DNA of 64,000 nt from Gemmatimonadota bacterium (GTDB taxonomy: Bacteria; Gemmatimonadota; Gemmatimonadetes; Longimicrobiales; Longimicrobiaceae). The translations under genes and the position numbers were made by a program. Within the stretch, counting starts at the first letter, position 1. Each line of letters starts with the position of its first letter. Below, piece after piece: positions 16,724 to 41,437 of this stretch. The DNA is taken from contig JBFMFL010000004.1 in the NCBI GenBank assembly GCA_040752145.1, forward strand, positions 13,031 to 77,030, in the 5' to 3' direction. A model generated the notes under the pieces. That model saw only the letters and a program-made list of their open reading frames with translations, was not told where the DNA came from and searched no databases.

Positions 16724-17548
16724 TCACCGCGGGTCCCGCCACTCCAGGGGGATGGCGACTCCACCGAGCGCGGTAACGCGGTAGAGTGCGGCTCCTCGCC
16801 GCCCGGCCACGTCCGCGATCCACTTTTGTACGAGCCCTGCGCGCACGAGCCACGCCAGGTCGGCCGGTCCCGGTCCGCTCGGCGCTGAAACGAGGGGCGG
16901 GTCACCGATCAGCGGATCCCACCCCTCCGCACGTTCTTCCCGGACGATCTGGTCCACCCAGCCGTCGTCTCCCATCCACGGCTCCCCGGTATCGTCCCGC
17001 GCCGCCTCCACCTCCTCTTCGCGGATGATCTTCCACGGCTCGCGCCGGGACCCGGGCTCCCAGGACCGTTTCGTCCGCTGCCGTCCCGTGGCCTGCTCCC
17101 GCAGCTCGTCCATGGTCCGCCAGCCGGGTTCCCCCGGGAGGTGCGGGGATTCCACCCTCATCTCCATCGCACGGCGCAGCTCCCGCAGCGCGAGGACCGC
17201 GCCGGCAGGGACGTAGATCGCCGCGTCCGTGTCCCGCTCGGCGAGCCGCTGCGGGCCAGGGATCGGGCGCCGCGGGAGGTCTGCCTGCGCCGCCGCCCGG
17301 TCCGCTCCGGCCCGCGTGACGCGGTAGATCCAGGCGGGGCGGGGGAGGCCCGGCGCGCGGACGTCCTCCCGGTCGAGCAGCCCCCGCCCGTGCAGCACCG
17401 GCAGCCGTTCGGGTAACCGTAACTCGGTGGCCCGCTCCACGTCTTCCCGCATGGCCCACCCCGGCACTTCCCGGCGCGTGTAGCCGCCTTCACGCAGGGC
17501 GAGGTAGCGAAGGTACCGCAGCGCGGCTGCATCCGGGTTCGTTTTCAT
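16724..17548 (-). CDS. Hypothetical 274-aa protein, left copy of a duplicated family (paralogue at 40616..41437)
   Basis: 59 of 75 residues are identical to the right copy over the N-terminal stretch I aligned by eye ('LRYLRYLALREGGYTRREVPGWAMREDVE...'). The C-termini also match: 'LYRVTALGGVAIPLEWRDPR' versus 'LYRITPLGGVVIPLEWREPR'. Confidence 0.75.
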   Translation of the reverse strand: MKTNPDAAALRYLRYLALREGGYTRREVPGWAMREDVERATELRLPERLPVLHGRGLLDREDVRAPGLPRPAWIYRVTRAGADRAAAQADLPRRPIPGPQRLAERDTDAAIYVPAGAVLALRELRRAMEMRVESPHLPGEPGWRTMDELREQATGRQRTKRSWEPGSRREPWKIIREEEVEAARDDTGEPWMGDDGWVDQIVREERAEGWDPLIGDPPLVSAPSGPGPADLAWLVRAGLVQKWIADVAGRRGAALYRVTALGGVAIPLEWRDPR

Positions 17549-17693
17549 GGTGCCAATACTGGCGGCCCTGTTCCCGGCGCGAAAATCCGGAGTGTGGTGT
17601 CACCTTCTATTTACCGGATGGTGCTGGCGGGTTCTGTATGGTGTGAATAGCTTGCGTTGCTCACCCGGTTTTCCCCAGCAACAGGAGGTTCCC

Positions 17694-17912
17694 ATGCGTA
17701 GAGCGATGATCCTCGGACTGTGCCTTGTCGCTTCCCTCGCCGCGTGCGGCGGCGAGACCCCCACAGGTGTGAACACCCCTGAAGGTCCGAGTTTCGACAC
17801 CGGATTGTTGGTGGGGAGCGGAGGGCAATCTGCGGAGGGCGCGGGAGGGACGACTACTACTTCGGACAGCACGACCGCCCGGTCGGGCTGGCTGGTCGGA
17901 TCGGGCGGTTAG
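17694..17912 (+). CDS. Small lipoprotein (72 aa)
   Basis: An AGGAGG sits 5 nt upstream of ATG 17694. Lipobox 'LVASLAAC', followed by Gly/Thr/Ser-rich mature sequence. Its end overlaps the convergent TPR-like gene by 4 nt. An analogous lipoprotein sits next to the right-hand TPR-like gene. Confidence 0.55.
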   Translation: MRRAMILGLCLVASLAACGGETPTGVNTPEGPSFDTGLLVGSGGQSAEGAGGTTTTSDSTTARSGWLVGSGG

Positions 17913-19264
17913 TGCCCGGATGACAGGGGCCGGCGGGCGGGCACGAGTTGCTGCCCTCCCGCCTCCCTTTCGACGCTGGGTTGTACGGGCCGCCGCATGG
18001 GCCGTTGGCGGGCCTGGAGAAGGAACATGATCCGGTCGTGGATCTCCGGGATGTGGCTGTCCTCCGGTGGCTGTGCGGGCGGGATCGGCGCCTCCAGCGC
18101 GTGAATGGCGGCGATGAACTCGTCCACCCCCTGCACGATTTCTGTCTCGCCCCGCGCCACCGCAATTGCACGCGCTCGCGTCGCAAAACGAAGCCCGACC
18201 TCCCCTTGGGCGAAAAAGCGAGCTCCGTACGCGGCGTGGGCTAGCGCCGCGGCGGCATAGGTGTGCGTACGCTCAACCAAGTTCTCGATGTGCTGCACCG
18301 CCTCTTCGTACAGCTGCTTGAACCCCGCCCCGGCGGCCGCACGGGACAGCGTGCCCCAACTTACAAGTTGAATCTCGAGTCGCTGGATGCTGGGAATGGA
18401 AGCCTGGAGTAGAGACGCGGCCTGCGAGTAGTAGCCCTGCTGGACAAGCAGAAAGCACCAGTCGTGGATGAGACCGGGAATCGCCGAGTGATGGACCGGA
18501 TAGTGTTGCAGTGCGCTCAGCATGTGGGCCTCGGCTTCGGGGTAGCTGCCGAGCATCACAGCGAGGGCATACAGGTCGTGGTGGGTCTCCGCGGCGAGGC
18601 GGTGGCGGCGAGTGGCGGCACAAAGACGCGCCGCCCGATCCAACAACGGGCGCGCATCGTCCAGCCGGCCGTGTTCTCGCAGGATCGTGCCCTTGCCGAG
18701 CAGAGCGCGGATCATCTCGCGCCGGTTCCGGTTCCCATCACGGCCGGCGATCCGGATGCCATAGTCGAACCAGCACTCGGAGCGGTCCGGGTGACCCGCA
18801 ATTCTGGCCATGCGCCCCGCGAAATTTGCACTAGCCGCGATATGTGGAGCGACTCGTACAGCGGCCTCTGAGTACAGAAGCGCGATGCAGCTCAAAGAAT
18901 TCCGGTGGGCCCACCGAGCGATGCGCTGGCAGGCTGCATTCAGGACTTCCGCAGTGGCGCGGTCCGAATCCGTGCGCAGGGCGGAGAGTGCCTGTACCGC
19001 TTCGGCAATGCTTTCACAATGCTCTGCCGCGAATCGGAGCGCATCGGTTCGATTCGGACTTGGTGCAAGTAGCAGCTTGGGCCGCTCCGTGGGGGTGGAC
19101 TCCGCCCAGAGCCGCAGATCGCGCAGCAAGAGCAGCAGGGCGAACAGGATGTGATCATCCCCGAGCGCATCTGCATCCTCGATGAGCTTGTGCTCCGGCA
19201 ACCATCGTGGCGCCGGAGGTAAGCTCCGCGGGCGGGGCTCGCGCTTGTTGGTTGTCTGCCCCAT
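17909..19264 (-). CDS. TPR-like all-helical regulator-type protein (family copy 1; low-GC copy)
   Basis: 451 aa of helical repeats. It shares 'RHRL', 'AAAGAG..(L)YEEA' and overall layout with 36934..38277 and 27452..28441. GC is visibly lower than in neighbouring genes. Confidence 0.65.
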   Translation of the reverse strand: MGQTTNKREPRPRSLPPAPRWLPEHKLIEDADALGDDHILFALLLLLRDLRLWAESTPTERPKLLLAPSPNRTDALRFAAEHCESIAEAVQALSALRTDSDRATAEVLNAACQRIARWAHRNSLSCIALLYSEAAVRVAPHIAASANFAGRMARIAGHPDRSECWFDYGIRIAGRDGNRNRREMIRALLGKGTILREHGRLDDARPLLDRAARLCAATRRHRLAAETHHDLYALAVMLGSYPEAEAHMLSALQHYPVHHSAIPGLIHDWCFLLVQQGYYSQAASLLQASIPSIQRLEIQLVSWGTLSRAAAGAGFKQLYEEAVQHIENLVERTHTYAAAALAHAAYGARFFAQGEVGLRFATRARAIAVARGETEIVQGVDEFIAAIHALEAPIPPAQPPEDSHIPEIHDRIMFLLQARQRPMRRPVQPSVEREAGGQQLVPARRPLSSGH

Positions 19265-19515
19265 CCGAATCTGAGGTGGCGAGTAGCGTGCGTTCGCAGG
19301 GCGCCATTAACGCGGACAAAGTAGACGCTGCCCCGGCGTCCTGCAATGCACCCTCGGTCACCCGCCGGAGACCAGCACCAGTCTCGGCCCTGTCCACCCT
19401 CTGTCGCGCGGCTGCCGTGAAAGCGATTCAGGACGTGGTGGAGGCGGAGGAGGCTCAGGCGTGGGCAGCCCTTGAGGAATGGGCACGCTCGCGCCGCCCT
19501 GGCTGCCGAGCATGC

Positions 19516-19956
19516 TCATGGGCGCCTCCGCCGGTCCTCGATCTCCAGGGCGAGCCACCGCGGCACGTCCTCCCCGGCCTCGTGGTAGAGGTGAGTCAGG
19601 GTCTCGGCAAGCTTCAAGCGGGCGCCGTACCGCGCGCTCGCCGGCAGGTCGTCCATCAGAAGGGCCAGGCACACGGCTTCCACCGGCATCTCCGCGGCCG
19701 GACGGTCCGCGGCCCATTCGCGAATGCGGTCCAGGTTGGCGACTTCGGGCACGCTGCGCATCTCCAGGAATTTTCTCACCACCGAGCGCCCCACGCCGAT
19801 CATCCGCGCGAGCGCCAGCTGCCCCGTGTGCGTGCGCAGCTCCCGCCGGATCACCTGCCGCAGCTCCTCCAGCCCCCACGCATCTGCCACCCGGTTGAAC
19901 CCGCCGGTCCGGCTTGGCGCCACTCCGGTCCGCTGCAAGTAGTCTGTCTGCTGCAT
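19516..19956 (-). CDS. HTH protein (146 aa), left copy of a duplicated family
   Basis: 104 of 146 residues match 39858..40298 in a gap-free alignment by eye. HTH-like core 'GQLALARMIGVGRSVVRKFLE'. Confidence 0.75.
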   Translation of the reverse strand: MQQTDYLQRTGVAPSRTGGFNRVADAWGLEELRQVIRRELRTHTGQLALARMIGVGRSVVRKFLEMRSVPEVANLDRIREWAADRPAAEMPVEAVCLALLMDDLPASARYGARLKLAETLTHLYHEAGEDVPRWLALEIEDRRRRP

Positions 19957-20506
19957 ACGTGCTCCCTGTTGAGGTGTGCCGCGTCACGGAATACGTTGCA
20001 GTCATGGGCGCTCCGGCGATATTGCGGACGGGAGAGGCGGGAAACGTGCGGCGGGCTCCATGGCAGGTCCCTGCGCTCCAATGTGGACAAAATGGACGCC
20101 TGGGTCCTGCCCGATCTCGCAACCCGTGCACGCTCGCCGGCTTCTCGGGAGGTGGAGGCCGTTCTGAGGGACCTGACGTCCGGCCTTCATGTCCGGGGCA
20201 GTGCGGATCGGGCTCTCGAACCGCGTGTTCCAGGTCCCGCGCCTGCGAGGAGGCCGCCTGGCTCCAGGGTAGGTCCCACCGGACGGCAGTATACAGAGTG
20301 GACATCTGGGGCCTGGCGAAGACGGAATTGATCCTGGAGTGACGAAAAGGAGAGGCGCCTGGCGGGGTGAACCTGCCAGCGCCCTCGCAATTCTGGCTCA
20401 CACCGGAACCCGTTCTGAGCTCATCCCGCTGCTCGTGCGGGAATCTGGGTCCCAGGTCCGGACCTGCCTGGCTCCAATCGAGCGCGGAAAGCCGCTGTCG
20501 ACGGAC

Positions 20507-20830: not shown

Positions 20831-21268
20831 TCAGCGGTGGGAGCGAGCGTCCAGGCGGAACGCGTGCTCGACGAGCTCGCCGATGCGGAACATGACCCGC
20901 GCATCGGCTGCGGCCTCCTCCTCGCCGCGGAAGCCGGAGTAGCCGCCGACCCGGATGCGGACGAGCGGGGCGCCCTGGTCGTCGTTGTATTCCACCGCCA
21001 GCTCGGCGGAGCCCCTCCAGCCGGCGTTCAACGACGTGTTGACGTCGGTGGCCGTCAGCGACATGAACGCGTACGGGCCCCGCACGGTGGACTCGCGCAT
21101 CCGGTCCGGGTCGAGGCGGCGGAGGTTCCTGGTCGCCAGCAGCTCGTCGGTGAGGCGGGATGCCACCCGCTGCGCGGTCGTCCCGGGGGGGAGGAGCTGC
21201 ACCTGGGTCTCCAGGTCCTGCCGGACGTGCGTGGGCGGGATGGGCTTTTCCTCGGGCTCGCTCATCAT
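20831..21268 (-). CDS. Hypothetical protein (145 aa); last gene of the long minus-strand gene run
   Basis: 'MMSEPEEKPIPPTHVRQDLETQVQLLPPG...'. Its ATG overlaps the stop of the upstream gene (ATGA at 21265-21268). Confidence 0.6.
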   Translation of the reverse strand: MMSEPEEKPIPPTHVRQDLETQVQLLPPGTTAQRVASRLTDELLATRNLRRLDPDRMRESTVRGPYAFMSLTATDVNTSLNAGWRGSAELAVEYNDDQGAPLVRIRVGGYSGFRGEEEAAADARVMFRIGELVEHAFRLDARSHR

Positions 21269-22104
21269 TCCGGGGCGGCGGCGCCGGGGGCGGAGCCAGG
21301 GTCCTGGGGGCCCGCCTCGGCGGCCCGCATTTCCAGCAGGCGCGGGCGGAGCGCGCCGTGGAGCGGGGGAAGGCCGGTCGCGGGCGCGAACACGACCAGG
21401 GTGGTGCGCTTGATCCGTCTGCCGCGGGTGTCCGTCGCGAACCACTCCCAGGCCGGCCGCATCTCGCCGCTCTGGTAGTGCTTGCGCATCCGGTGGCGGA
21501 CGCGGTAGCCGTGGGAGAGGGCATAGGCGATCAGCACCTCGTCGCCGGGCCGAGGACGGTTGAACGAGTCGTCGTCGACCTCGATGCCGATGTGCGCCAG
21601 GGCGTCGCGCCACGCGGAGACGGACGCGCGAACCGTCTCGACGTCGCCCTTGCGGGCGTACTCGATTGCGTGCTCCAGCGCGTCGGCCGTGCCGGTGGGG
21701 ATGTTCCACTGTCCCTTGGCTGCGGCCTTGTCCTGCTCGTCCTGGAGGTAGATGAGCAGATTTTCGAGGAGGTCGGCGTCTCCCTCGGGCCGAACGTCCG
21801 GGTCCCACAGGTCGTCCAGAGCGCCGTTGGTCTCGATCACCAGGTGGTCGCGGCGGACGAGATAGTAGGTGCCGCCGCGGACGTGGAGACAGACCGGGCA
21901 GGGGATCCCGGTCTGCCAGCCGATGAACGGGTCGTAGGCGGCGTCGAGGACATCCGGCGCCCTGGTGACCGTCAGCTCGGAGCCGCACTTGCCGCAGGCG
22001 AGCGGGACGGGGGGCGCGGATGGCGGCGACTGCCGGGATGTGGGCATCGTGTGGTCGATGCGGAGCGGGTGAGGGGGGCCGCGGGGGTTCGCAGGAAGGT
22101 GCAT
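21265..22104 (-). CDS. Hypothetical protein with an N-terminal zinc-ribbon
   Basis: 'CGKCG...(27 aa)...CPVC' is followed by an acidic helical region. Start may be ATG 22047 (MPTSRQ). Confidence 0.6.
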   Translation of the reverse strand: MHLPANPRGPPHPLRIDHTMPTSRQSPPSAPPVPLACGKCGSELTVTRAPDVLDAAYDPFIGWQTGIPCPVCLHVRGGTYYLVRRDHLVIETNGALDDLWDPDVRPEGDADLLENLLIYLQDEQDKAAAKGQWNIPTGTADALEHAIEYARKGDVETVRASVSAWRDALAHIGIEVDDDSFNRPRPGDEVLIAYALSHGYRVRHRMRKHYQSGEMRPAWEWFATDTRGRRIKRTTLVVFAPATGLPPLHGALRPRLLEMRAAEAGPQDPGSAPGAAAPE

Positions 22105-22148
22105 GTTGTGGCTGCGCGGGGGCCGCTGTCAACCCGGAGGAACCGGGC

Positions 22149-22772
22149 CTACAGCCCGCCGGCGAGGGAGGCGCTCACGGAGCGGCCGATCTCCCAGCCG
22201 ATGAGGTGGAGGTCGGGGTAGTCGAGCTCCAGGCCCCGGGCCTCCAGGGCGGTGCCGAAGGCTGCGGCCACGTCCATGGGTGGATAGGTGTGCAGCAGCG
22301 CCGCCACGGCCTCGGCCAGCGCCGGATCGGCGTCGGCGCCGGGTGCCGCGGAGGGATCATCTCCGGTGCCGCGGTCGTCCTCGGCGACGGAGCCGGCGTG
22401 CATGCCGTTCTCTTCCGCGATCTCGGCGAAGACCCGGGTACGGCGGGCGAGCATGCGCAGCTGCTGGAGCTTGCCGTCGGGCTCCCACGCCGCGGGGTGC
22501 GTGAGGGCGTGCGCGATGCGCGCGGCGGCCGCGGCCGCGTACCACGCCTGCCTCGCGGCGTCGGCCCCCCGGCCGATCAGGTCCATGTGGTGTGCGACCG
22601 ATTCCTGGCCGACCTCGGTGGCGGCGCGGGGACCGGCGAGGACCCCCCGCGTCGCGCGAAAAAGCCGCAGGATGGCCAGGCGCGCGTGGCGGGTCGTGGT
22701 GCGGGCGTCGTCGTGGGTGCGGCGCGCGAGGTCGGCGACCTCGGCCGGGTCGACTCCGGGGTGCAGTTCCAT
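22149..22772 (-). CDS. Hypothetical helical protein (207 aa)
   Basis: Normal composition and high GC3. No recognised motif. Confidence 0.55.
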   Translation of the reverse strand: MELHPGVDPAEVADLARRTHDDARTTTRHARLAILRLFRATRGVLAGPRAATEVGQESVAHHMDLIGRGADAARQAWYAAAAAARIAHALTHPAAWEPDGKLQQLRMLARRTRVFAEIAEENGMHAGSVAEDDRGTGDDPSAAPGADADPALAEAVAALLHTYPPMDVAAAFGTALEARGLELDYPDLHLIGWEIGRSVSASLAGGL

Positions 22773-22908
22773 TCGATCGAGCGGGGATGGGGTGTCGGAC
22801 CGCCGGCGCGAGCGGATGTCGTGCTTCGCGGCACCGCGCGGAGGCGTAAGCGGGATGGCGGCCGGCGCGGCTGGCCGAGCGCGCCGGACTCGGGAGCGCC
22901 TGGCGGGG

Positions 22909-23031
22909 TCAGCGGGGCGCCGGCGCCCCGCGGAAGGCGCTGGGCGCGCGGGGCTGCGGCTCCGGCATGCCCTCGCCGGAGGCGAGCTCCGCGAGGTAGT
23001 CGTCGTGGCGGTCGGTGTTCGCGTGCATCAT
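22909..23031 (-). CDS. Mini-ORF (40 aa)
   Basis: 'MMHANTDRHDDYLAELASGEGMPEPQPRAPSAFRGAPAPR'. Every codon ends in G/C. Confidence 0.35.
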   Translation of the reverse strand: MMHANTDRHDDYLAELASGEGMPEPQPRAPSAFRGAPAPR

Positions 23032-23083
23032 AGGCCGTCGGGAAGGGGAGGTGGCGCCGCCGGGGGGCGGCGCCGGTGCGGGG

Positions 23084-23659
23084 TCAGCGGCGGGGGAGCA
23101 GCGTGCGGAAGACGGTGCGCAGGTCGTCGTCGATGGCGGGGACGGGGGAGCCCGGGTCGCGCGGGCACGAGACGACCGTCTGGCCGTCGCGGCTCGTCCA
23201 GGTCCAGCAGGGTCCGTGGGTGCCATCCGCCGCCTCCACGGCCTCCACGCGCCAGCCGCGCGTCTGGGCCACCAGCATCAGGTGGGCGTCCTCCAGGGGA
23301 TCGGGCTTCTGGATGTCGGCGAGGATCCGGTTCATGGCATCGGCGGCCGCGGTGAGGTGCTCGGCGATCACCTCGACGGTTGTCGTGACGCGCATGGCGA
23401 TGTCGGGGCCCATGCCGACGTCGAGCTGGGCCCGGATGGCGGAGAGCAGCGCGGTGTGCGCGATGCGGGCGTCGCGATCCGGGGACTGCTCCAGGAGCAG
23501 GGTGCCGACGGCGAGGACCGCGGCGGCGTGGTCCGACAGCGGGTTGCACTCGGCGTCCCAGGTATCGAGCGCGAGCTGTGTGTGGGCCAGGGCGGCGCCG
23601 GAGGCGAGCAGGCGGGCGAGGAGCGCGCCGTGGCGGCCGCGCGGAGTGTAAGGCGGCAA
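23084..23659 (-). CDS. Hypothetical protein (191 aa)
   Basis: Protein-like composition: a helical N-terminal half and a beta-type C-terminal part ('GPCWTWTSRDGQTVVSCPRD'). Confidence 0.55.
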   Translation of the reverse strand: MPPYTPRGRHGALLARLLASGAALAHTQLALDTWDAECNPLSDHAAAVLAVGTLLLEQSPDRDARIAHTALLSAIRAQLDVGMGPDIAMRVTTTVEVIAEHLTAAADAMNRILADIQKPDPLEDAHLMLVAQTRGWRVEAVEAADGTHGPCWTWTSRDGQTVVSCPRDPGSPVPAIDDDLRTVFRTLLPRR

Positions 23660-23684
23660 GGAAGTCTCCAGAGGTACGTGTGGG

Positions 23685-24110
23685 TCAGATGGGGACCGGG
23701 CGGAACTCGAGGCCGGAGACAGCGATCCGGGTCTCCCCGGGGAAGCGATCCGCGAACCAGGCCGGCGGCGCGTCGACGCATACCTCCAGGGCGAGGTAGT
23801 AGATGGTGCAGGCGTCGTTGCCTTCCTCGATGCGGTAGCCGGTGACCACGCCCGGGCCGAAGCCGTTCAGGGTGACGACGACGCGGGCTCCGATCGCCGG
23901 GACGTCGTGGGGCCCGCTCCAGTTGAGCCCGGGGACGGGGCCGCCGCCGCTGTCCCGCATCAGGTGGAGCGGCTGCGGGACCGCGGACAGGCCGGTGGTC
24001 AGGCCCCGGGGAAGGGCGGCGAAGCCGCCGGGCGGGGGGGTGGTCTCCGCGGAGGGCTGGTCGATGCCGGTGGAGCGGGCGGGGGACGCCGGGTCGCCGC
24101 GCCGGGTCAT
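23685..24110 (-). CDS. Hypothetical protein (141 aa)
   Basis: '...GARVVVTLNGFGPGVVTGYRIEEGNDACTIYYLALEV...'. Its ATG overlaps the upstream stop (ATGA at 24107-24110). Confidence 0.55.
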   Translation of the reverse strand: MTRRGDPASPARSTGIDQPSAETTPPPGGFAALPRGLTTGLSAVPQPLHLMRDSGGGPVPGLNWSGPHDVPAIGARVVVTLNGFGPGVVTGYRIEEGNDACTIYYLALEVCVDAPPAWFADRFPGETRIAVSGLEFRPVPI

Positions 24111-24882: not shown

Positions 24883-24940
24883 CGGGGCGAGCGGCGGCTG
24901 GGGCGCCGGGGGGCGCGGTGGTGGTGGTGACCGAGGCGGC

Positions 24941-30269: not shown

Positions 30270-30289
30270 GCGGGCTCCGGGGCTGGGGG

Positions 30290-32008: not shown

Positions 32009-32012
32009 GGGA

Positions 32013-33993: not shown

Positions 33994-33996
33994 CGT

Positions 33997-34239
33997 TCAG
34001 CCCTTGGAGCCGAGCACGGTGGTGAGGGTGTGCACCCGCTTGTTGCCCTTCACCTCGGGGCCGGAGACCGTGGCGGTGGCGATGTCGGGGTAGCGCGCGG
34101 CGTAGAAGCGCTTCGCCTGCTCGATGTCGGTCTCGCCGGCGGGGAAGGGGAGGGTGGTGCCGTTGTACGAGATCGTGTCGGTGATCTTCTCGACCGTCAC
34201 GCCGCGGCGGGCGGGCTGGATGGTTCCGGTGGTCGGCAT
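33997..34239 (-). CDS. Ubiquitin-like small protein (PRTRC protein C-like)
   Basis: 80 aa: 'MPTTGTIQPARRGVTVEKITDTISYNGTTLPFPAGETDIEQAKRFYAARYPDIATATVSGPEVKGNKRVHTLTTVLGSKG'. It ends in a free C-terminal Gly. Size and position fit the Ubl of E1/E2 cassettes. Confidence 0.6.
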   Translation of the reverse strand: MPTTGTIQPARRGVTVEKITDTISYNGTTLPFPAGETDIEQAKRFYAARYPDIATATVSGPEVKGNKRVHTLTTVLGSKG

Positions 34240-34286
34240 GTGGGGTTCGCTTCCTGGGGGAGGTTGAGGGTGGTGCCGGAGGTGGG

Positions 34287-34802
34287 TCAGTTCGCCGCGG
34301 CGGCGACGGCGGGCGCGCCCATCACGTCGATCCCGAACAGCGTCAGCTCGCCCGTGTCGGTGGGCTCCCGGGGCCCGCCCTCGTCGGGCACCTCGGTGGC
34401 GATCGCGACGGTGGTGATCGTGGTGGTGCGGGAGGCGGCGGCGCCCGCGGCGGCCCCGGTGCCGGTAGCTCCGGCGGCTCCTCCCGCGGCCTTCTTGGCG
34501 CCCTTGCCTTTCAGCGTGTCGCGCGCGGCCGCCGAGGCGGCGACGACCGCGGCCCTGACCTCGTCCAGCGTGGTCCGCAGGCCGGCGTGCGCCTCGGTGT
34601 ACTCGCCGAGGAGCTGCGGGAGCGCCTCGTCCACCTCGTCGTAGCTGCCGGTGACGAGGAGGGGCTCGCAGAGCGCGGGGTTGTCGTCCTTCGCGAGCTG
34701 CTCGGGGATGACCGCGACCTGGAGCTCGTCCTCGCCGAGCTGGCAGAGGGCGAGCATCACGGGGCGGCCGGTGGCGAGGATCGGGCGGAGTTCCTTGAGC
34801 AT
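34287..34802 (-). CDS. PRTRC protein E-like protein
   Basis: A ~90-aa globular N-terminus ('MLKELRPILATGRPVMLALCQLGEDELQVAVIPEQL...'), then an Ala/Gly/Lys/Thr low-complexity linker and an acidic tail. Confidence 0.5.
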   Translation of the reverse strand: MLKELRPILATGRPVMLALCQLGEDELQVAVIPEQLAKDDNPALCEPLLVTGSYDEVDEALPQLLGEYTEAHAGLRTTLDEVRAAVVAASAAARDTLKGKGAKKAAGGAAGATGTGAAAGAAASRTTTITTVAIATEVPDEGGPREPTDTGELTLFGIDVMGAPAVAAAAN

Positions 34803-34841
34803 TCGGATGTGGCGTTGGGGGGTGCTGGGCCGCGGTGCGGC

Positions 34842-35450
34842 CTAGCGGGAGGTCCAGACGTGGACGTAGCCGCGGTGATCGACGCTGCGCACGTCGGCCG
34901 CGAGCTGGAGCATGGTGCGGCCGATCGGCCACGCGTACGGGGTGAGAGGGTGAAGGGTGATCCCGTCGACGCCGGCGAAGGCGCCGCCGAAGGCGGCCCG
35001 GTGGAGGGCGCGCTGGAGGTCGTGGTCGGAGTCGCCGCGGTGCGCCGCCACCAGGTGCGCGCCGACTCCGGGGGCCTGGGCGAGCCACACCGTGGCGGTC
35101 GTGGGGTGGAAGCTGTGGCGGACGGTGGAGAGGTGGACCCGCGAGGCGGGGATGGCGAGCGGGGTCGCCGGCCGCGGCGGCGACGGGTCCAGCTCCCAGG
35201 CGCCGACGCCGATCGGGGAGACGAGGAATCCGCCGGCGCCGGCGGCGCTCGCGCGGAGAATGGCCACCACGGTGGCGATCCGGGTGCCCGGCGGAAACGC
35301 GGCCAGGCGGTCCACGTGCCCGGGCCGCAGCACGCGGTAGAGGGTCACGGGCGGCCCGAGGCGGGGCGGGCCGCGCGGCTGGAGCGCCGGCGCGGGCGCC
35401 CGTGCCGGCCGGGCGGCGGCCATGGACGGGGGACGTCGGAGGTCGATCAT
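34842..35450 (-). CDS. Hypothetical 202-aa protein in the position expected for PRTRC protein A
   Basis: ATGA overlap with the upstream gene. 'HSFHP' and 'GDSDHD' only loosely resemble a JAB/MPN metalloprotease motif. Confidence 0.4.
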   Translation of the reverse strand: MIDLRRPPSMAAARPARAPAPALQPRGPPRLGPPVTLYRVLRPGHVDRLAAFPPGTRIATVVAILRASAAGAGGFLVSPIGVGAWELDPSPPRPATPLAIPASRVHLSTVRHSFHPTTATVWLAQAPGVGAHLVAAHRGDSDHDLQRALHRAAFGGAFAGVDGITLHPLTPYAWPIGRTMLQLAADVRSVDHRGYVHVWTSR

Positions 35451-36214
35451 GGAGACGGTGCGGCGAGGGCGGGCGCGGGCGCGAGGCGGGGGCGCCGTGG
35501 AGGAAGGGGGATCCGCCGCACGCGTTCTCCCTCCGCGGTTGCCGGAGCGGGGGACGCGGGGGGATCGAAGAGGCTGGGCTGGAGCGACGGGGGTGCGTAG
35601 CGGGCCAGCCAGGCGTGGAGCCGGGCCTGCATCACGCCGGGGGCGCCGCCGCCTTCGATCAGGCGCACCCCGGCCGGGAACCAGCGGTCCGGGAGGGCGA
35701 GCCGGTAGGTCCGCCCCATCGCCAGGTACACCTCGCCGGCGTCCTCCTCGTAGACCGCACGGGGAACCGCGCAGTTGAGGAACCACTTCATGTGCTCGGC
35801 CCGCTCGCGGTCCATCCGCTCGTCGTAGGGCTCGATCAGGTCGGTGGGGCGCAGGAGGCCGTAGCGGGCGCTCAGGATGCGGATCCCGATGTCGGGCACG
35901 GCGTCCACCAGCTGGAGGCGCTTGCACACCCGGAAGAGGATCCCGTCGTAGAGGCTCCAGGCCGGCGCCGGGCCGGCGGAGGCGTGCTTGGTCGCGGAGC
36001 ACGAAAGGATCAGCAGGCCGCGGGACGCAGAGCCGAGCTCGCAGCGGCCGCGGCACCAGCGGCCGAAGGACATGCCCGGGTGGTGCGGGGCGCCGCACCG
36101 CTCGCACGGCGGGCCGGACGCGATCCACTGGCCGGTGGGGCTGCGCGACCAGGTGGTGGGGACGACGTGGCGGTCGACGGCGTAGGCGTAGTCGTTCGGA
36201 GGACGGTAGCGCAT
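35447..36214 (-). CDS. Hypothetical protein with a zinc-ribbon-like N-terminus and a DUF6884-like core
   Basis: 'CERCG...' near the N-terminus. 'LLILSCSATKHASAGPAPAWSLYDGILF...IRILSARYGLLRPTDLIEPYDERM' matches my recollection of the 'CS..K ... ILSA.yGL..p...I.PYD' pattern of DUF6884-type proteins. Unverified. Confidence 0.45.
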   Translation of the reverse strand: MRYRPPNDYAYAVDRHVVPTTWSRSPTGQWIASGPPCERCGAPHHPGMSFGRWCRGRCELGSASRGLLILSCSATKHASAGPAPAWSLYDGILFRVCKRLQLVDAVPDIGIRILSARYGLLRPTDLIEPYDERMDRERAEHMKWFLNCAVPRAVYEEDAGEVYLAMGRTYRLALPDRWFPAGVRLIEGGGAPGVMQARLHAWLARYAPPSLQPSLFDPPASPAPATAEGERVRRIPLPPRRPRLAPAPALAAPSP

Positions 36215-36225
36215 CGGCGGGGGCG

Positions 36226-36489
36226 CTAGTCGGCGTCGGGGCGAGGGGCCGGCAGGGCGGCGGACGGGCGGACGTGGAACTCGTCGGGGCCGGCCTGGAC
36301 GAGCAGGGAGGCGCACGTGTGCTCCACCATCCCGTCGTCGCCCCACCAGACGGCGTGCTTGAGGTGCGCGCAGCCCTTCGCCCCGCAGGGGACGCTCTCG
36401 CCCAGGGCGACGCCGGTGACGTCGCCCGCGGCGGCGACGATCAGCGCGCCGGCCCGGGGGGACGGTGTGGAACTGGAGGCCATTCGCAT
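36226..36489 (-). CDS. Small Cys/His-containing protein (87 aa)
   Basis: '...GESVPCGAKGCAHLKHAVWWGDDGMVEHTCASLLV...'. High GC3. Confidence 0.45.
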   Translation of the reverse strand: MRMASSSTPSPRAGALIVAAAGDVTGVALGESVPCGAKGCAHLKHAVWWGDDGMVEHTCASLLVQAGPDEFHVRPSAALPAPRPDAD

Positions 36490-36508
36490 CCTGGGGGTGG
36501 GGTGCGCG

Positions 36509-36745
36509 TCAGCGCAGCGCGAGCGAGAGGTGCCGGGCGTACACGGAAACCAGGCGCCAGTACATCGCCATCGGGCCCTTCCGCTGCCGCCAGCTCGTCT
36601 CCGCGCGGACGGCGGCGTCGCGGGCCAGGTCCTGGAGGACGGCGCGCATCGCTTCGCGGCTCTCCGGGGGAAGGGCGCCCAGGGCGTGTGCCGCCGGGAG
36701 GGCGAGCACGGGGTTGCGGACGATGGGGGAGCTGGAGCGGAGCAT
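36509..36745 (-). CDS. Hypothetical small protein (78 aa); first gene of the run
   Basis: 'MLRSSSPIVRNPVLALPAAHALGALPPESREAMRAVLQDLARDAAVRAETSWRQRKGPMAMYWRLVSVYARHLSLALR'. Confidence 0.5.
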   Translation of the reverse strand: MLRSSSPIVRNPVLALPAAHALGALPPESREAMRAVLQDLARDAAVRAETSWRQRKGPMAMYWRLVSVYARHLSLALR

Positions 36746-36810: not shown

Positions 36811-36853
36811 GGTTGAAAAGAAAAAAAGGAGCCCCGCGCCATCGCGCGGGGCT
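36811..36853 (-). terminator. Rho-independent terminator/attenuator-like hairpin in the 5' leader of the minus-strand gene run
   Basis: The minus strand reads AGCCCCGCGC-GATG-GCGCGGGGCT (10-bp perfect GC-rich stem, 4-nt loop), then CC-TTTTTTT-C-TTTT. It lies 66-108 nt upstream of the first start codon (36745). Confidence 0.6.
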
Positions 36854-36933
36854 GTGCAAATCAGGTCCGGAAAACCACGGGGAAATAATGCTATGGATTG
36901 TGCACGGACGCACCAATAGTTTGTAAATAAACC

Positions 36934-38277
36934 GTGTCACCGTGGGCGCGCATGCGGACCGACACGGTGTCCACCAATCCAGCCGCCATGCCATCTGTTC
37001 CTGAGCCGATCCGGCGCACGTGCCCGCTTGCCGTGGGTCCCCTGACGCAGGAGGAGGAATCCCCGGAGGGTGTCGCCATCCTGCTGGAGGTCCCGGGCGC
37101 GCCGGGCGCGCTCCTGTGGGGCGCGCTCCGCGACGTGCTTCTCTGGATCGAGGCTCGACGGAGTGGCCAGGGAAAGCTGTTCGCGCCGGACGCGGCGCGC
37201 ACCCGCATCGAGTGGATCCGCTCTCATCCGGTGCCGGAGGACCTCGTCCCGCCGTTGCTGGTGCTCGCCGAGATGACCGGCGAGGCCGGGGGCGTGATGC
37301 GGGACGCTGTGACAGTGGCCTGCGGGCGGGTCGCTACATGGGCGATGGAGAACGGTGCGGTGGAGCTCAGGCTTGCGTTCACGGAAGCTGCAGCGCTCCT
37401 TGCCCCCGAAGATCCACACATGGCGCTTGCAGCCGGGCGACTGGCTCGCGACGTGGGCCGCCCCGCGCGGGCGGAAACCTGGCTGCGAAAGGCGGTCAAG
37501 CTGGCCCGCAACCGAGACTGGGAGACGTACGTGTGGGCCTTTACCGGGCTGGGGCTCATGTACTGGCGCGCCGGGAACCTCCGTGGGGCGCTCGCGGTCG
37601 CTGAGCGCGCCCTGCGCACTGCCTCCCGGCACCGGCTCCGGCACCTGGAGGGCGTGGTGCTGCACAACCTCTTCATGTTCGTCTCCGACCACGACGTCGC
37701 CAGAGCGTACCAGCATGTCTGGGGGGCGCTGCGCGCGTACGGAGCGGGGAACCCGCGCCTCGCCGTGCTGGCGCAGGACGTCGCCTGCTACTGGGCGGAC
37801 CACGGGCAGTTCGCCCGCGCTCTGCCGGTGATCGAGGCGGCGCTGCCCCGCATGTCCGACCCCCACGAGCGCATGCTGGTGCTGGCGGGCCGGGCCCGCG
37901 CAGCGGCAGGGGCCGGTCTCACGGACGTGTACGAGGAGGCGAGGGTTCAAACTCTTCGGGCCCTCTCGGAGACCCACGGCGAGGCACGAGCGGCGGAGAC
38001 GCTGGTCGTGCTCGCCTCGGCCGACCTGCTGGCGCGCAAGATGGACCGGGCCGAGGAGGCTGCGCGCCGCGGAGCAGAGACCGCGGCCCGCCGCGGCGAG
38101 CATGCCGCTAGGATGGCGGCCGAGGCGGTGATCGAGGCCGCGCGCGCACGGAGGCCGCACGCCTCCAGCCGAGCCGCCCCGGAGCCAGCCGGCCTTGCCC
38201 GTCAGGCGGACCGTCTACAAGGAGACCTGATCCTCTCGCTCGCGGGGGAGCCCGCCGGTGGGACTCACGCTCTTTGA
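36934..38277 (+). CDS. TPR-like helical regulator-type protein (family copy 2)
   Basis: 447-aa helical repeat protein. Shares 'LLWGALRDVLLW', 'RHRL' and 'AAAGAGLTDVYEEA' with the other two copies. Alternative in-frame ATG at 36952. Confidence 0.65.
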   Translation: MSPWARMRTDTVSTNPAAMPSVPEPIRRTCPLAVGPLTQEEESPEGVAILLEVPGAPGALLWGALRDVLLWIEARRSGQGKLFAPDAARTRIEWIRSHPVPEDLVPPLLVLAEMTGEAGGVMRDAVTVACGRVATWAMENGAVELRLAFTEAAALLAPEDPHMALAAGRLARDVGRPARAETWLRKAVKLARNRDWETYVWAFTGLGLMYWRAGNLRGALAVAERALRTASRHRLRHLEGVVLHNLFMFVSDHDVARAYQHVWGALRAYGAGNPRLAVLAQDVACYWADHGQFARALPVIEAALPRMSDPHERMLVLAGRARAAAGAGLTDVYEEARVQTLRALSETHGEARAAETLVVLASADLLARKMDRAEEAARRGAETAARRGEHAARMAAEAVIEAARARRPHASSRAAPEPAGLARQADRLQGDLILSLAGEPAGGTHAL

Positions 38278-38299
38278 GCCCCGCCGGCAGCTCCGATTC

Positions 38300-38527
38300 C
38301 TACGGCGTGGTGACCACCGTCACGGTGTCGACGGGCGCCGAGGTCGTGCCGCCCGGTTCACTGCCGTCGGCAGTACGGCCCCCGCCGCCCACCATGCCGA
38401 TGCCGTCCAGCGCCGGGGTCGGCGAGGGGCGGACGGCAGGATCCGTCGCCCCCTGTGAGTCGCAGGCCGAAAATGTCAGGGCGAGGGCGAGTGCGAACGT
38501 GGCCGTAAAAGCGCGGAGCCTGCTCAT
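38300..38527 (-). CDS. Small lipoprotein (75 aa)
   Basis: Lipobox 'LALTFSAC', then Gly/Thr/Pro-rich mature sequence. Convergent with the TPR-like gene, as in the left module. Confidence 0.5.
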   Translation of the reverse strand: MSRLRAFTATFALALALTFSACDSQGATDPAVRPSPTPALDGIGMVGGGGRTADGSEPGGTTSAPVDTVTVVTTP

Positions 38528-38670
38528 GGTGTAACTCCTTTCGGACAAATGGAAAGCGAGGGCAAAGGCGCACTCGGCCTGTGCCCGGGGAGAAGTTCCG
38601 AAAGGTGCGCCCGCTCCGGTCCGAGGGTCAAGGCGCGTCGTGAAAACCACCCCCCGATGGGGATTCCCTG

Positions 38671-39507
38671 ATGCAACCTGTTGTTCGCCCGCTCTTTCTC
38701 TTGCACTCGGACCCGGCGCTGCGCCACGCCCTGGGCCGCATTCCCGGCCAGCCGTACATCCTCTCGCTCGTGTCGAACTGGGAGGCTTTGCAGGATGGTT
38801 TGCGCCGGGCGCCGCCAACCGCCCTGGTGGTGGCTGACCCGCGTGGTGAGAGCGAGGAGGGCGGCCTTACCTGCGCTCTCGCCGAGCTCCTGCGCACCTA
38901 CCCCTCCGCCACGGTGCTCGCGGCGCTTCCGGTTGCTCCGGAGGATGCGGAGCTGGTGCTCAGGTTGAGGGAGTGGGGTGTCGCCGACGTGATCGACCTG
39001 GCTCGGGAGCGCACCCCGGAGGCGCTGGAGCGACGCCTCCGGGTCGTACAGGGTCGGGCCGTTCGGCGTCTCCTCCAGCGTGCCCTGCCGCCCAATGTGC
39101 CGGGGCGCACCCGGACGCTGCTCGCGGCCGCGGCCGAAGTGGTATCCCGCGGTGGCCAGTCCCCGGAATTTGCCGCGTCGCTCCAGGTGACGGAGCGGAC
39201 CGTCGCCCGTTGGTGCGAGCGGGCGGACCTGCCCCCGCCGCGGCGGCTCCTGGCCTGGATGCGGATCCTGCTCGCCACGGAATTGCTCGACGATGCCGGC
39301 AGGTCGCTGGAGTCGACCGCGCGGGCCTGTGGATACTCCGGTGCGGGAAGTCTGAAGCCCGCGCTGCGCAATTTCCTGAACAGGTCAGCGCGTGAACTGC
39401 GCGAGGCGGGAGCGTTCGCCACGGCCGTCCAGGTGTTCCGCGAGGAGATGGACCAGATCCGTGAGGCAGGCCGGAGCGTGAAGCCGGCCAAGGTCTGGCT
39501 GAACTGA
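38671..39507 (+). CDS. Receiver-like domain + AraC-type HTH transcription regulator
   Basis: The N-terminal ~120 aa have a CheY-like layout ('PLFLLHSDPAL...ALVVADP...VLAALPV'), but the acidic pocket is incomplete. The C-terminus 'SPEFAASLQVTERTVARWC...ARACGYSGAGSLKPALRNF' is an AraC/XylS-type double HTH. Confidence 0.6.
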   Translation: MQPVVRPLFLLHSDPALRHALGRIPGQPYILSLVSNWEALQDGLRRAPPTALVVADPRGESEEGGLTCALAELLRTYPSATVLAALPVAPEDAELVLRLREWGVADVIDLARERTPEALERRLRVVQGRAVRRLLQRALPPNVPGRTRTLLAAAAEVVSRGGQSPEFAASLQVTERTVARWCERADLPPPRRLLAWMRILLATELLDDAGRSLESTARACGYSGAGSLKPALRNFLNRSARELREAGAFATAVQVFREEMDQIREAGRSVKPAKVWLN

Positions 39508-39857
39508 TCGGCTACGGAGTCATGCGCCAGAAGGTTCTCCACGGCCTCGCGACCGGGTATTTCGAGACGCGCTTTGAAGAACCCGGCCGGCGGCATTCAG
39601 GAGCCCGGCTTTTCGCAACTCGAACGGCTTTCGGGCCGCAGCGGCGATTCCAGGCTCCAGCGGAGCAGCCCTGGGTACGTGCAAATCCCCAGCTTCTGCG
39701 GCCGTTTGGGCTCCCGCTGTCCACTCTGTCCACCTTGCACCGTAGGAGCCCGGTCCGGGAGCCGCCGTGCGCCGGCCGGTCCTGACCTACGCGGTGCCGC
39801 GGTGCCCCTTGTCGTAAGGAGCTCCGTACCGGGGCAAACCATTACTCAGGAGCGCGT

Positions 39858-40298
39858 ATGCAGCGGATGGAATACCTGCGGCGAACAGGGGTGGCAGCGA
39901 GCCGAGACGGCGAGTTCGACCGGCTCGCGGACGCATGGCGGCTGGAGGAGCTGAGACAGGTGATCCGGCGTGAGCTGCGCACCCATTGCGGTCAGCTGGC
40001 GCTCGCGCGGATCATCGGCGTCGGGCGTTCGGTCGTGAGGAAGCTCCTGGAGATGCAGAGCGTGCCCGAGCCCGAAAACCTTGGCCGCCTGCGGGAGTGG
40101 GCGGCTGACCGCCCTTCGGCCGACACTCCACGGGCCGTGGTGTGCCTGGCGGTGCTGATGGAGAACCTGCCGCCGAGCGCGCGGTACGGCGCCCGTCTCG
40201 AGGTGGCCGAGACCCTGACCCGGCTTTACCGCGAGACCGGCACTGAAGTGCCGCAGTGGCTCGCTCACGAGGTGCAAGACCGCGGGAGGGAGCTGTGA
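39858..40298 (+). CDS. HTH protein (146 aa), right copy of the duplicated family
   Basis: 104/146 identical to 19516..19956 (gap-free alignment by eye). Confidence 0.75.
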   Translation: MQRMEYLRRTGVAASRDGEFDRLADAWRLEELRQVIRRELRTHCGQLALARIIGVGRSVVRKLLEMQSVPEPENLGRLREWAADRPSADTPRAVVCLAVLMENLPPSARYGARLEVAETLTRLYRETGTEVPQWLAHEVQDRGREL

Positions 40299-40615
40299 GT
40301 TCGCCCGGCGGACAGCCTGTCGCGAGCCTCCCGGCTACACCCGAGGCGTCCGCGCCCGTGCAACTCCCCCGGAGTCCCCGGTGCGACCCGTCCACCCCTC
40401 CGGAGCGGGTACGTCGGGTTGCTTCCGGCTTCTGCTGGTCTCGGGTGGATAGAGGATGCGTCTCCCGAGAGGGTGGGTCTCCTGCCGCTGAGGGCGACCA
40501 GCACGCGAGAAGCAGAAGCTGGGTGGAGCACATACAAGCTGCCACCACTCTCCGCTACACAGGAAGTGCCTCCATGCGCCGGATTTCGCCGCTGCAAAGG
40601 GAGTAACTTGGTGCC

Positions 40616-41437
40616 ATGGACATGACTCCTGATGCAGTCGCGCTACGATACCTGCGTTACCTGGCCGTTCGCGAGGGCGGATACTCCCGTCGCGGGGTGC
40701 CGGGATGGGCGATGCGGGAAGACGTGGAGCAGGCCACCGACCAGAAGCTGCCGGAGCGCCTGCCGCGCCTTCACGCCCGCGGGCTGCTCGACCGCGAGGA
40801 CGTCCACGCGCCACACCTGACCCGGCCGGCGTGGATCTACCGGATCAACCAGGCAGGGGGAGATCGGGTGGCTGAGGAGGCGGATCTACCGCTCCGCGTG
40901 ATTCCCGGTCTGTTGCGCCATGGACCGGAGCGGCAGATGGATGCAGCCGTCTACATCCCGCCCGGTGCAGTCCTGGCGCTCCGCGAGCTGTGCTGTGCGA
41001 TGGACGCGCGGGTCGAGTCCCGGCACCTCCCGGGGGAGCGGGGATGGCGGAACGCCGCGGATCTTCGCGAGCAGTTCCTCGGGGAGGACCCAGCCAGGTC
41101 CCACTGGGAACCGCGCAGCAGCGGAGATGCGTGGATGAATGCCCGCGAGGTGGACGAGACTGAGCTCCTGCCCGGAGAGCCGTGGATGGGCGACCACGAT
41201 GGGCTGGACCAGGTCGCTCGCGAAGAGCGAGAGTGGGGATGGGATCCGCTTGTGGGGGAGCTGCCGCTCGGCCCCACCCCGCGGACTCCCTTGCCCGATG
41301 ACCTGCGGTGGCTTGTGCGGGTGGGTCTGGTGCAGCAGTGGACCGCACAGCACCCCGGCCGACGGCGGGTGACGCTGTATCGAATCACTCCCCTCGGCGG
41401 CGTAGTCATCCCTCTCGAGTGGCGGGAGCCTCGATAG
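40616..41437 (+). CDS. Hypothetical 273-aa protein, right copy of the duplicated family
   Basis: Paralogue of 16724..17548 on the opposite strand. Confidence 0.75.
   Translation: MDMTPDAVALRYLRYLAVREGGYSRRGVPGWAMREDVEQATDQKLPERLPRLHARGLLDREDVHAPHLTRPAWIYRINQAGGDRVAEEADLPLRVIPGLLRHGPERQMDAAVYIPPGAVLALRELCCAMDARVESRHLPGERGWRNAADLREQFLGEDPARSHWEPRSSGDAWMNAREVDETELLPGEPWMGDHDGLDQVAREEREWGWDPLVGELPLGPTPRTPLPDDLRWLVRVGLVQQWTAQHPGRRRVTLYRITPLGGVVIPLEWREPR

Follow-up and report, generated by a model that had tools for sequence, protein, structure and literature searches.

The RRNPP systems of Firmicutes and of their plasmids and phages include Rap-Phr, NprR-NprX, PlcR-PapR, PrgX and AimR-AimP, and in Firmicutes such peptide signals decide when plasmids, integrative and conjugative elements (ICEs) and phages move or switch lifestyle. 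In Rap/Phr*/Rco of plasmid pLS20 and RapI/PhrI/ImmR of ICEBs1, a tetratricopeptide repeat (TPR) protein devoid of a helix-turn-helix (HTH) acts on a separate repressor. To our knowledge, peptide signals read by cytoplasmic TPR receptors are known only in Gram-positive bacteria, and they are regarded as a Firmicutes speciality. Here we compare with these systems a gene cassette that occurs in two diverged copies in 64,000 nucleotides of DNA (the window; contig JBFMFL010000004.1, positions 13,031 to 77,030) from a member of the Gemmatimonadota, an abundant, almost uncultured soil phylum. Each copy encodes a TPR protein and, convergent with it, a small lipoprotein. We give an even chance to the reading that the cassettes are subtypes, L and R, of a regulatory unit that works as an RRNPP-like peptide/receptor switch, and are not the ends of one element.

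The published RRNPP signature consists of a propeptide of 10-100 aa, secretion by Sec (through an SPI signal if applied strictly) and a receptor of 250-500 aa that contains TPRs and is encoded by the direct neighbour (Bernard et al. 2023, PMC10075063); the mature peptide usually lies at the C-terminus of the propeptide (PMC10075063). The cassettes have the sizes (54-85 aa for the candidate propeptide, 329-451 aa for the TPR protein) and the adjacency. Their SPII signals, judged by eye, reach only the 'relaxed' detector level for secretion, and the TPR proteins show no detectable homology to any of the receptor subfamilies (Rap, NprR, PlcR, PrgX, Rgg, AimR). The gene run that lies between the two copies is of the PRTRC type, a catalogued system associated with mobile elements (PMC3318190).

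The cassette, its subtypes and its distribution

The G+C content of the window is 74%. Frame-specific third-position G+C (GC3) and lists of open reading frames (ORFs) delimit three gene blocks: a left block at 16.7-20.3 kb, transcribed leftwards, the run at 20.8-36.7 kb, and a right block at 36.85-42.0 kb, transcribed mostly rightwards. The left and right blocks have 68-70% G+C, as against 74% in the run and the outer flanks. The closest protein relatives are found in metagenome-assembled genomes of Longimicrobiaceae and Gemmatimonadales. A first-pass annotation, made from the letters alone, had described the two outer blocks as inverted paralogous modules bracketing the run, and all of the genes that it assigned to them are present where it placed them. 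A minus-strand gene at 40.6-41.5 kb, assigned by GC3, was rejected since homology shows that the plus-strand gene for a 273-aa protein is the real one.

By BLASTP the left 274-aa protein (16724..17548, minus strand; 274 below) and its right 273-aa counterpart (40616..41437, plus strand) are identical at 171 of 275 positions (62%); the 59 of 75 identities counted earlier at the N-terminus are exact, and the similarity extends over the full length. The Xre-like 146-aa HTH proteins (HTH146; 19516..19956, minus strand, and 39858..40298, plus strand) share 104 of 144 aligned residues (72%), the same number of identities as had been reported. The TPR proteins are more diverged. The left one (17909..19264, minus strand, 451 aa) and the right one (36934..38277, plus strand, 447 aa from a GTG, the ATG at 36952 being the likelier start of a 441-aa product) have 27% identity over 373 aa (E 1e-31), and a third, orphan copy inside the run (27452..28441, minus strand, 329 aa), also seen in the first reading, is 32% identical to the right (E 1e-25) and 26% to the left protein (E 4e-16). 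In the DNA, inverted repeats pair 19453-19965 with 39849-40361 (74%) and 16891-17556 with 40608-41270 (73-76%). With identity at this level and a gene order that differs between the modules, these are diverged paralogues and not terminal inverted repeats, as the annotation had held. It had also listed a third HTH146 relative, the 114-aa protein HTH3 (41577..41921, minus strand). No similarity between the two was found by BLASTP; hhalign with family alignments of 5 and 9 members gave E 7.7e-5, a probability of 62% and 91 columns (E 0.0025 with thin alignments), so that HTH3 is plausibly a remote relative.

The neighbourhoods of about 16 cassette instances, read mainly via exact-protein look-ups, show two fixed architectures. 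The L-type order is HTH146, micro-ORF (where present), TPR gene, lipoprotein gene on the opposite strand, and 274; it is found on the left of the window and in the compared loci L002/9, L003/10/11, L005, L006, L012/13, L014, L015, L017, L020 and L021. The most distant of these, L021, is only 42% identical and keeps both the architecture and the two peptide features described below. The R-type order is TPR gene, lipoprotein gene on the opposite strand, AraC, HTH146, 273 and, again on the opposite strand, HTH3; it occurs on the right of the window and in OY970303.1 (L001/L004), an 8.4 Mb Gemmatimonadales chromosome. HTH3-like genes also lie beside cassettes in L015, L017 and L021, and a homologue of the AraC protein (47% identical) lies beside an R-like TPR gene in L002. 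By these comparisons of sequence and gene order, the two modules are two diverged subtypes of one conserved cassette, restricted to Longimicrobiaceae and related Gemmatimonadota. The left copy is a block (16653..20321, minus strand, 68% G+C against 74% in its flanks) that is conserved as a unit in other Longimicrobiaceae, with blastn matches in L002, L003, L006 and L020; the right copy (36850..42005, plus strand) is 90.5% identical in nucleotide sequence to OY970303.1 over 5.16 kb.

The cassette had not been described before. Its families draw no specific match in Pfam, NCBIfam or PADLOC, and the first reading had not recognised them either. The 274, HTH146 and TPR proteins have no NCBIfam match and so lie outside the PRTRC gene set. 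No PADLOC model matches the cassette-specific proteins, and the AraC protein shows only a weak local HTH match there (mad1, E 7.7e-5); a defence system was rejected because PADLOC gives nothing for the module proteins. A phage origin was rejected as well, since a search of IMG/VR with the 274 family returned no relative. Among 5.8e9 clustered proteins there are 36 close homologues of the 274 family and 24 homologues of the L-type TPR family, and the named matches, a minority, all come from Longimicrobiaceae or Longimicrobium. A profile search with the 274 family collected 193 cluster representatives, all of them metagenomic proteins, and 7 loci were located in GTDB representative genomes. A metagenome scan with the 274 alignment found nothing, and one with the HTH146 alignment found one locus.

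That some 16 cassettes keep fixed architectures shows that the families are strongly associated with one another, which answers the concern, raised with the original annotation, that they might be housekeeping regulators scattered without association to each other or to PRTRC-type genes. The expected link to PRTRC fared differently: PRTRC genes are missing within 10 kb of most cassettes elsewhere, the link was seen only in the window and one close relative, and a general PRTRC association is not supported. The cassettes probably tend to sit in accessory islands. Their contexts include flagellar genes (L002), a mer operon with a large serine recombinase (L017), another serine recombinase (L021) and TniQ/PDDEXK genes with IS1595 (L015), while L003/10, L006 and L012 share a syntenic chromosomal neighbourhood (E1 dehydrogenase, AI-2E transporter, DUF4142) in which the position of the cassette varies by genome. 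Some 4-8 kb past the end of their L cassettes, L002 and L015 have another TPR/lipoprotein pair in inverted orientation; clustering of paralogous pairs is thus recurrent, yet it occurs in both orientations (L005).

Several details of these loci were noted in passing. A 6.2-kb segment of L010, with the L cassette and three genes for small secreted proteins, is enclosed by a 75-bp direct repeat (7121-7195 and 13317-13391, 96% identical) that reproduces the 3' end of the AI-2E transporter gene; the repeat resembles an att-type duplication, and no integrase gene is present. The 274 gene and the micro-ORF are degenerate in L006. In L008, positions 4987-5632 match at 91% the stretch 44742-45388 that adjoins the CDF transporter gene in the window, and an internally deleted 273-like gene (9984-10445) lies about 4.3 kb from this match in the opposite relative orientation; cassettes may repeatedly have settled next to the metal-resistance cluster. 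Within 1-8 kb of cassettes there are pairs of a PDDEXK_1 nuclease gene and a TniQ/TnsD-like gene, 93% identical in two genomes, with no TnsB- or TnsC-like genes in view, and in L017 a PDDEXK_1 gene also adjoins a serine recombinase (the loci are L001 18752-20726, L015 3064-5915 and L017 10248-11279). In the related contigs L014 (6870-13393) and L018 (1-4646) a gene for a 974-aa protein apparently interrupts the cassette between the TPR/lipoprotein pair and a gene for a 269-aa winged-helix protein, and L018 runs on into a RiPP cluster of graspetide type that includes a C39-peptidase ABC exporter.

Paired TPR and lipoprotein genes and their companions

The L-type TPR protein matches Pfam TPR_12 and is predicted to be a cytoplasmic TPR superhelix: its AlphaFold2 model (pLDDT 86.5) is an all-helical TPR superhelix over residues 23-417, with no HTH, no other DNA-binding domain and no signal peptide. 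Foldseek searches with this model returned generic peptide-binding TPR superhelices at the top (designed consensus TPRs, LGN/Pins, OGT). The gene that meets it head-on encodes a 72-aa small lipoprotein, the candidate propeptide (17694..17912, plus strand, lipobox LAAC), and overlaps the stop codon of the TPR gene by 4 nt. Its R-type counterpart encodes 74 aa (38300..38524, minus strand, lipobox FSAC), is likewise convergent with its TPR gene and is 83% identical in L001. The convergent arrangement, correctly described at the outset, is conserved in other genomes. Across the cassettes the lipoproteins range from 54 to 85 aa, the shortest being that of the R-like pair of L002. All have a basic n-region, a hydrophobic core and the lipobox L/F-A/T/S-A/G-C, followed by a short mature part rich in Thr, Ser and Gly.

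In most L-type and related lipoproteins the motif G-(W/L/I/F/G)-x-x-G-S-G-(G/N) occurs twice. The internal copy lies about 20 residues past the lipid-modified Cys and is followed by R, K or Q, and the other copy usually forms the C-terminus. The left lipoprotein of the window has GLLVGSGG internally and GWLVGSGG* at its end (asterisks mark stop codons), L005 has GILAGSGN and GLLAGSGN*, the second pair of L015 has GGTYGSGG twice, and L021 has GGWTIGSG twice; in the last three, both copies have changed together within one protein. Single copies are found in L007 (terminal GFGMGSGG*), in the R-like lipoprotein of L002 (terminal GPVSGSGT*) and in the right lipoprotein of the window and L001 (internal GIGMVGGGG). 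As a regular expression the motif gave 28 matches in 637,000 six-frame residues of the compared DNA, all of them within cassette lipoproteins, which shows specificity, not discovery, the expression having been derived from these same proteins. In one of the L012 lipoprotein copies a stop codon immediately follows the first motif.

The two genes go together. Except for the internal one, each TPR subtype is paired with its own lipoprotein and its own motif variant, and the genes are direct neighbours, convergent, overlapping or 0-40 nt apart. Lipoprotein genes occur in tandem in L012 (three, 8989-9850) and L006 (two, 9423-9846). Between the window and L020, HTH146 is 95% and 274 is 92% identical, as against 54-55% for the TPR protein and 56-58% for the lipoprotein. 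The TPR identity is 82% over the first 50 residues and about 50% thereafter, and the L020 lipoprotein retains the signal peptide and has changed motifs (GGLLAGSGN and GGWTMGSGN). Among the six complete L cassettes, identity between TPR proteins correlates with that between lipoproteins (Spearman 0.55) and not with that of HTH146 or 274 (-0.12 to -0.24). These patterns indicate that the TPR/lipoprotein pair is exchangeable as a unit while HTH146 and 274 stay about 92-95% identical.

The remaining cassette proteins are, by prediction, mostly DNA-binding. HTH146, whose left copy has orthologues of 60-95% identity in 10 loci, shows only below-threshold similarity to HTH_3 in Pfam, and a PDB sequence search gave no match. 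The AlphaFold2 model of 274 (pLDDT 76) has predicted winged-helix-like units, each a helix/beta-hairpin unit, at the N- and C-termini, with a small middle domain and a disordered acidic linker; its Foldseek matches are winged helices of PadR, MarR and ScpB type, all weak (E > 0.1), and one distant family member is labelled PadR-family by its source. By homology the right 273-aa copy is predicted to be a tandem winged-helix protein too. The R-type block also encodes a 278-aa regulator (38671..39507, plus strand) that had been labelled REC/AraC. The AraC part is borne out by a C-terminal PF12833 HTH_18 match (38.7 bits against a cut-off of 33.6). The REC part is not: Pfam gives no Response_reg match at E <= 0.1, phmmer and profile searches of PDB sequences gave no receiver structure, and no family was detected for the N-terminal domain of about 140 aa. 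HTH3, a companion of the cassette, has homologues in L001, L015, L017 and L021.

Directly after HTH146 lies a micro-ORF of 23-55 codons; its start codon shares bases with the stop of HTH146 (ATGA, GTGA or TGATG). The body is variable and Pro-rich, and the end, (L/V)LL(V)SGG* or ...TLGSGN* in L021, resembles the lipoprotein motif, with codons that vary synonymously (TCC/TCG, GGC/GGT/GGA, TGA/TAG). The left copy (19358..19519, minus strand, 53 aa) begins at an ATG in ATGA and ends in ...RLVLVSGG*. The micro-ORF is whole in the left cassette of the window and in L001, L003/10, L005, L012, L020 and L021, its length, overlapping start and terminal motif being retained, and it is degenerate in L002 and L006; in L003/10 it was called as a 53-aa gene by the source. 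In the right region (40295..40452, plus strand) a GTG overlaps the HTH146 stop, and LLLVSGG* (40432-40452) is out of frame. Clear third-position bias, which would point to purifying selection, was looked for in the body and not found, so that coding status is likely, not certain. We also considered the LLVGSGG likeness between micro-ORF and lipoprotein as an inverted DNA repeat around the TPR gene, and rejected this since the codon usage differs and there is no DNA repeat.

The cassettes also share a cis element. The sequence GTCCAC-N3-GTCC(A/G)C precedes each HTH146 start by about 140 nt and the L-type TPR start by about 50-60 nt. In the window it appears as the direct repeat GTCCAT-TTT-GTCCAC before the left HTH146 ATG (20083..20097, minus strand; conserved in 10/10 aligned cassettes), as a second copy, GTCYAC-N3-GTCCRC, before the L-type TPR ATG (19312..19326, minus strand), and as GTCCAC-TCT-GTCCAC upstream of the right HTH146 (39719..39733, plus strand). 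It is a candidate promoter or operator element.

A putative peptide/receptor switch and its alternatives

The most likely function of the cassette, to judge from its sequences, would be a new variant of peptide/TPR signalling. The lipoprotein would be exported and processed, with release of octapeptide-like signals, and the cognate TPR protein would sense the peptide. Having no DNA-binding domain, the TPR protein would act in a Rap-like manner on the DNA-binding proteins of the cassette (HTH146, 274, HTH3 and AraC) and thereby switch transcription, both of the cassette itself and of adjacent accessory genes (in the window, those of the PRTRC island). The two cassettes of the window would then be two orthogonal channels, accompanied by one orphan receptor.

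The likeness to RRNPP systems lies in a small candidate propeptide gene (54-85 aa, with a predicted signal peptide) beside the gene of a 330-450 aa TPR protein, in a candidate mature peptide at the C-terminus, in the co-diversification of receptor and peptide, and in the presence of several pairs in one locus, often on or next to mobile DNA. As in Rap systems, the TPR protein has no HTH and a neighbouring Xre-like protein is a candidate repressor, comparable to Rco or ImmR. By analogy, Rap/Phr*/Rco of pLS20 or RapI-PhrI of ICEBs1 would be the nearest mechanistic counterpart. On the other hand, the host belongs to a diderm phylum outside the Firmicutes, the receptor has no sequence homology or specific structural homology to RRNPP receptors, the propeptide has an SPII signal and carries its motif twice, the genes are convergent, and the tandem winged-helix protein 274, HTH3 and the coupled micro-ORF with its similar motif are without counterpart. 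With an unrelated receptor, a diderm host and a lipoprotein-type signal peptide, the cassette is not a member of RRNPP by homology.

A number of observations weigh against a peptide/receptor switch. An SPII signal in a diderm predicts a lipid-anchored periplasmic protein, which is no obvious diffusible signal, and we infer each of export, processing, uptake and binding. The receptor shows no homology to any RRNPP family, Pfam and NCBIfam recognising only generic TPRs, and Rap of pLS20 (with Phr*) appeared only at rank 32 in the Foldseek search (E 1.7e-3, TM ~0.37). The single motif copy of the R-type lipoprotein is not C-terminal, and the internal TPR gene (27452-28441) has no adjacent lipoprotein or peptide gene. 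The right micro-ORF is frameshifted by a 1-nt deletion relative to L001 (OY970303.1), which may reflect either a true pseudogene or a fault in the assembly, and the body of the micro-ORF is poorly conserved, with 8/3/5 substitutions by codon position. The co-variation statistic comes from 6 cassettes only. Finally, several cassettes lie among ordinary chromosomal genes, and control of mobile elements is therefore not general.

Some of these points suit the main rival, an ordinary lineage-specific regulator cluster in which the TPR protein would be a scaffold or co-regulator, the envelope lipoprotein merely co-located, the motif structural, and the copies plain paralogues near variable DNA. Such a cluster would need no specific RRNPP-receptor similarity; its lipoprotein would be anchored in the membrane, as the signal predicts, it could reside in the stable chromosomal neighbourhoods that some cassettes occupy, and a C-terminal motif, absent from the R-type lipoprotein, would not be expected. 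It does not account for the one-to-one pairing of TPR and convergent lipoprotein in all subtypes bar the internal one, for the concerted change of both motif copies, for the replacement of TPR protein and lipoprotein together inside a cassette otherwise 92-95% identical, or for the tandem amplification of the lipoprotein gene. Pairing, concerted change and unit swap appear to argue against this explanation, and we regard it as unlikely, if worth keeping in mind. Small exclusion lipoproteins are known from plasmids, such as TrbK of RP4, and a module for exclusion or immunity of mobile elements would make the lipoprotein an entry- or surface-exclusion factor that diversifies by specificity, and the HTH proteins element repressors. 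The rapid diversification of the lipoprotein and the frequent presence of cassettes in islands with PRTRC genes, serine recombinases, TniQ/PDDEXK genes or IS elements are consistent with this. However, conjugation and phage genes are absent from the run and from the vicinity of most cassettes, IMG/VR and PADLOC gave no matches, cassettes are also found in non-mobile contexts, and both the obligatory cytoplasmic TPR partner that co-varies with the lipoprotein and the motif common to the cytoplasmic micro-ORF are left unexplained. We consider this very improbable.

We give equally little credence to the modules being inverted ends of one composite element, whether as a duplicated regulatory or immunity module around cargo or as substrates for inversion of the intervening ~20 kb. 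As in invertible or composite elements, two inverted homologous blocks lie about 17-23 kb apart on either side of the run, both have a lower G+C content than run and flanks, and L002 and L015 likewise have an L cassette and an inverted TPR/lipoprotein pair around 4-8 kb of other genes. Against it stands the behaviour of the parts elsewhere, each block being independently conserved in other genomes. The Logan contig SRR12181061_25871 (L019 and L020) carries the same PRTRC island, collinear with window 22393-36853 at 90-98% amino acid identity. It has an L cassette after some different genes, in the same orientation relative to the run as in the window, and the ~1.2 kb read upstream of the run holds an unrelated gene and no R cassette. 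The R block recurs in OY970303.1 apart from any PRTRC island and between unrelated flanks (one has Nmad2, a LexA-like gene and small genes; the second has genes for a 1625-aa protein and a RES protein as well as TniQ/PDDEXK genes). In the window, island homology switches to R-block homology within 3 nt (36850-36853), directly after a hairpin; no terminal or direct repeats were found at the block ends, and transposon-like ends for the R block were rejected. Because the L cassette is present in the related island and the R block elsewhere has unrelated flanks, we infer that the L cassette travels with this PRTRC island and that the R cassette is a separate acquisition abutting the island head. 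As for inversion, the inverted copies agree at about 74% of positions, their longest unbroken identical stretch being 22 nt, and differ in gene order, the ORFs scanned yielded no recombinase or invertase domain, and run and L cassette have the same relative orientation in the sole available relative. The near-identical inverted repeats and dedicated recombinase of an invertible segment are thus absent, and inversion is unlikely. Of the explanations offered in the first-pass annotation, the structural one (ends of one element, inversion) is therefore not supported, and that of successively integrated related elements or a regulatory module was broadly right, being near to what the comparisons show. 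The duplicated lipoprotein motif, the micro-ORF and the exchange of receptor and peptide had escaped that annotation.

If the peptide/receptor switch is real, the logic of peptide/TPR communication extends to diderm bacteria, a handle is gained on the regulation of genomic islands in Gemmatimonadota, and the peptide/receptor pairs are directly testable, since the genes themselves spell out the peptide sequences. Tentatively, and with rather more doubt than confidence, we suggest that the cassettes may be the first RRNPP-like peptide communication with cytoplasmic receptors outside Firmicutes, with parts that possibly arose independently: a lipoprotein holding the signal octapeptide in two copies, a receptor split from its DNA-binding partners, a coupled intracellular micro-ORF with the same terminal motif as a possible mimic or competitor, pherotypes exchanged as receptor-plus-peptide units, and gating of the surrounding accessory islands, in the window a PRTRC island. 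Even conservatively, four to six previously unannotated protein families are joined as one conserved unit with defined boundaries and a candidate promoter/operator motif.

The PRTRC-type island and flanking genes

The PRTRC-type run (20831..36745, minus strand) contains about 28 genes, all on one strand, assigned with Pfam and NCBIfam. Three PRTRC genes exceed the NCBIfam cut-off: that of the ThiF protein (31205-32008, TIGR03736, 262 bits), Prok-E2_D/PRTRC_B (32013-32723, TIGR03737, 144.5 bits) and Prok_Ub/PRTRC_C (33997-34236, TIGR03738, 48.3 bits). ThiF, the E2-like B and the ubiquitin-like C are thus encoded together, as in a PRTRC system, in the run and not in the modules; the cassettes lie outside the PRTRC definition and are mostly without PRTRC genes. 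ParB and the PRTRC A, D, E and F models had zero matches among the ORFs tested. Pfam identified two further genes, also on the minus strand, for a DUF6884 protein (35447-36130) and for an Mrr_N plus N6_N4 DNA methylase (24941-26218). The methylase gene is whole in the window and is split in the related island (L019 12960-15278) by an inserted gene with a CarboxypepD_reg domain. No tRNA genes are present in the window, and a tRNA integration site was hence rejected.

The orthologue of the orphan TPR gene occupies the same place in the related island and is 68-71% identical. The adjoining gene (28545-29255, minus strand) has no Pfam match; its L019 orthologue, 79% identical, is annotated by the source as PF26128 (Gad2). 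These two are the fastest-evolving genes of an island that is otherwise 90-98% conserved.

G+C-rich hairpins lie at both ends of the run. The one at 20746-20779 belongs to a 150-bp element whose counterpart in L020 sits across the L cassette, on its other side. A search for att-like direct repeats around the L cassette of the window yielded only this terminator-containing element (20670-20815). The hairpin at 36828-36851 is followed on the minus strand by a T-run and marks the exact junction between island and R block.

The outer flanks carry ordinary or metal-resistance genes (PhoX, GDPD, MCP, CzcA-type RND pump, CDF transporter, P-type ATPase). On the left, the related contig lacks about 13.6 kb of the window (2993-16653), which include MCP, Zn phospholipase C, GDPD, PhoX and CpsB-like PHP genes; its L cassette gives way almost at once to the equivalent of window 529-2993, a region with a C5 DNA methylase (91% nucleotide identity). 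The left flank is thus itself a variable insertion, rich in phosphate-scavenging genes. On the right, a heavy-metal cluster (45370-57000) comprises a CDF transporter, a methyltransferase, a CzcA-type RND pump with its membrane-fusion protein and an HMA-domain P-type ATPase, and beyond it lie HmuY/TonB-receptor genes and a BlaI/Penicillinase_R-type repressor.

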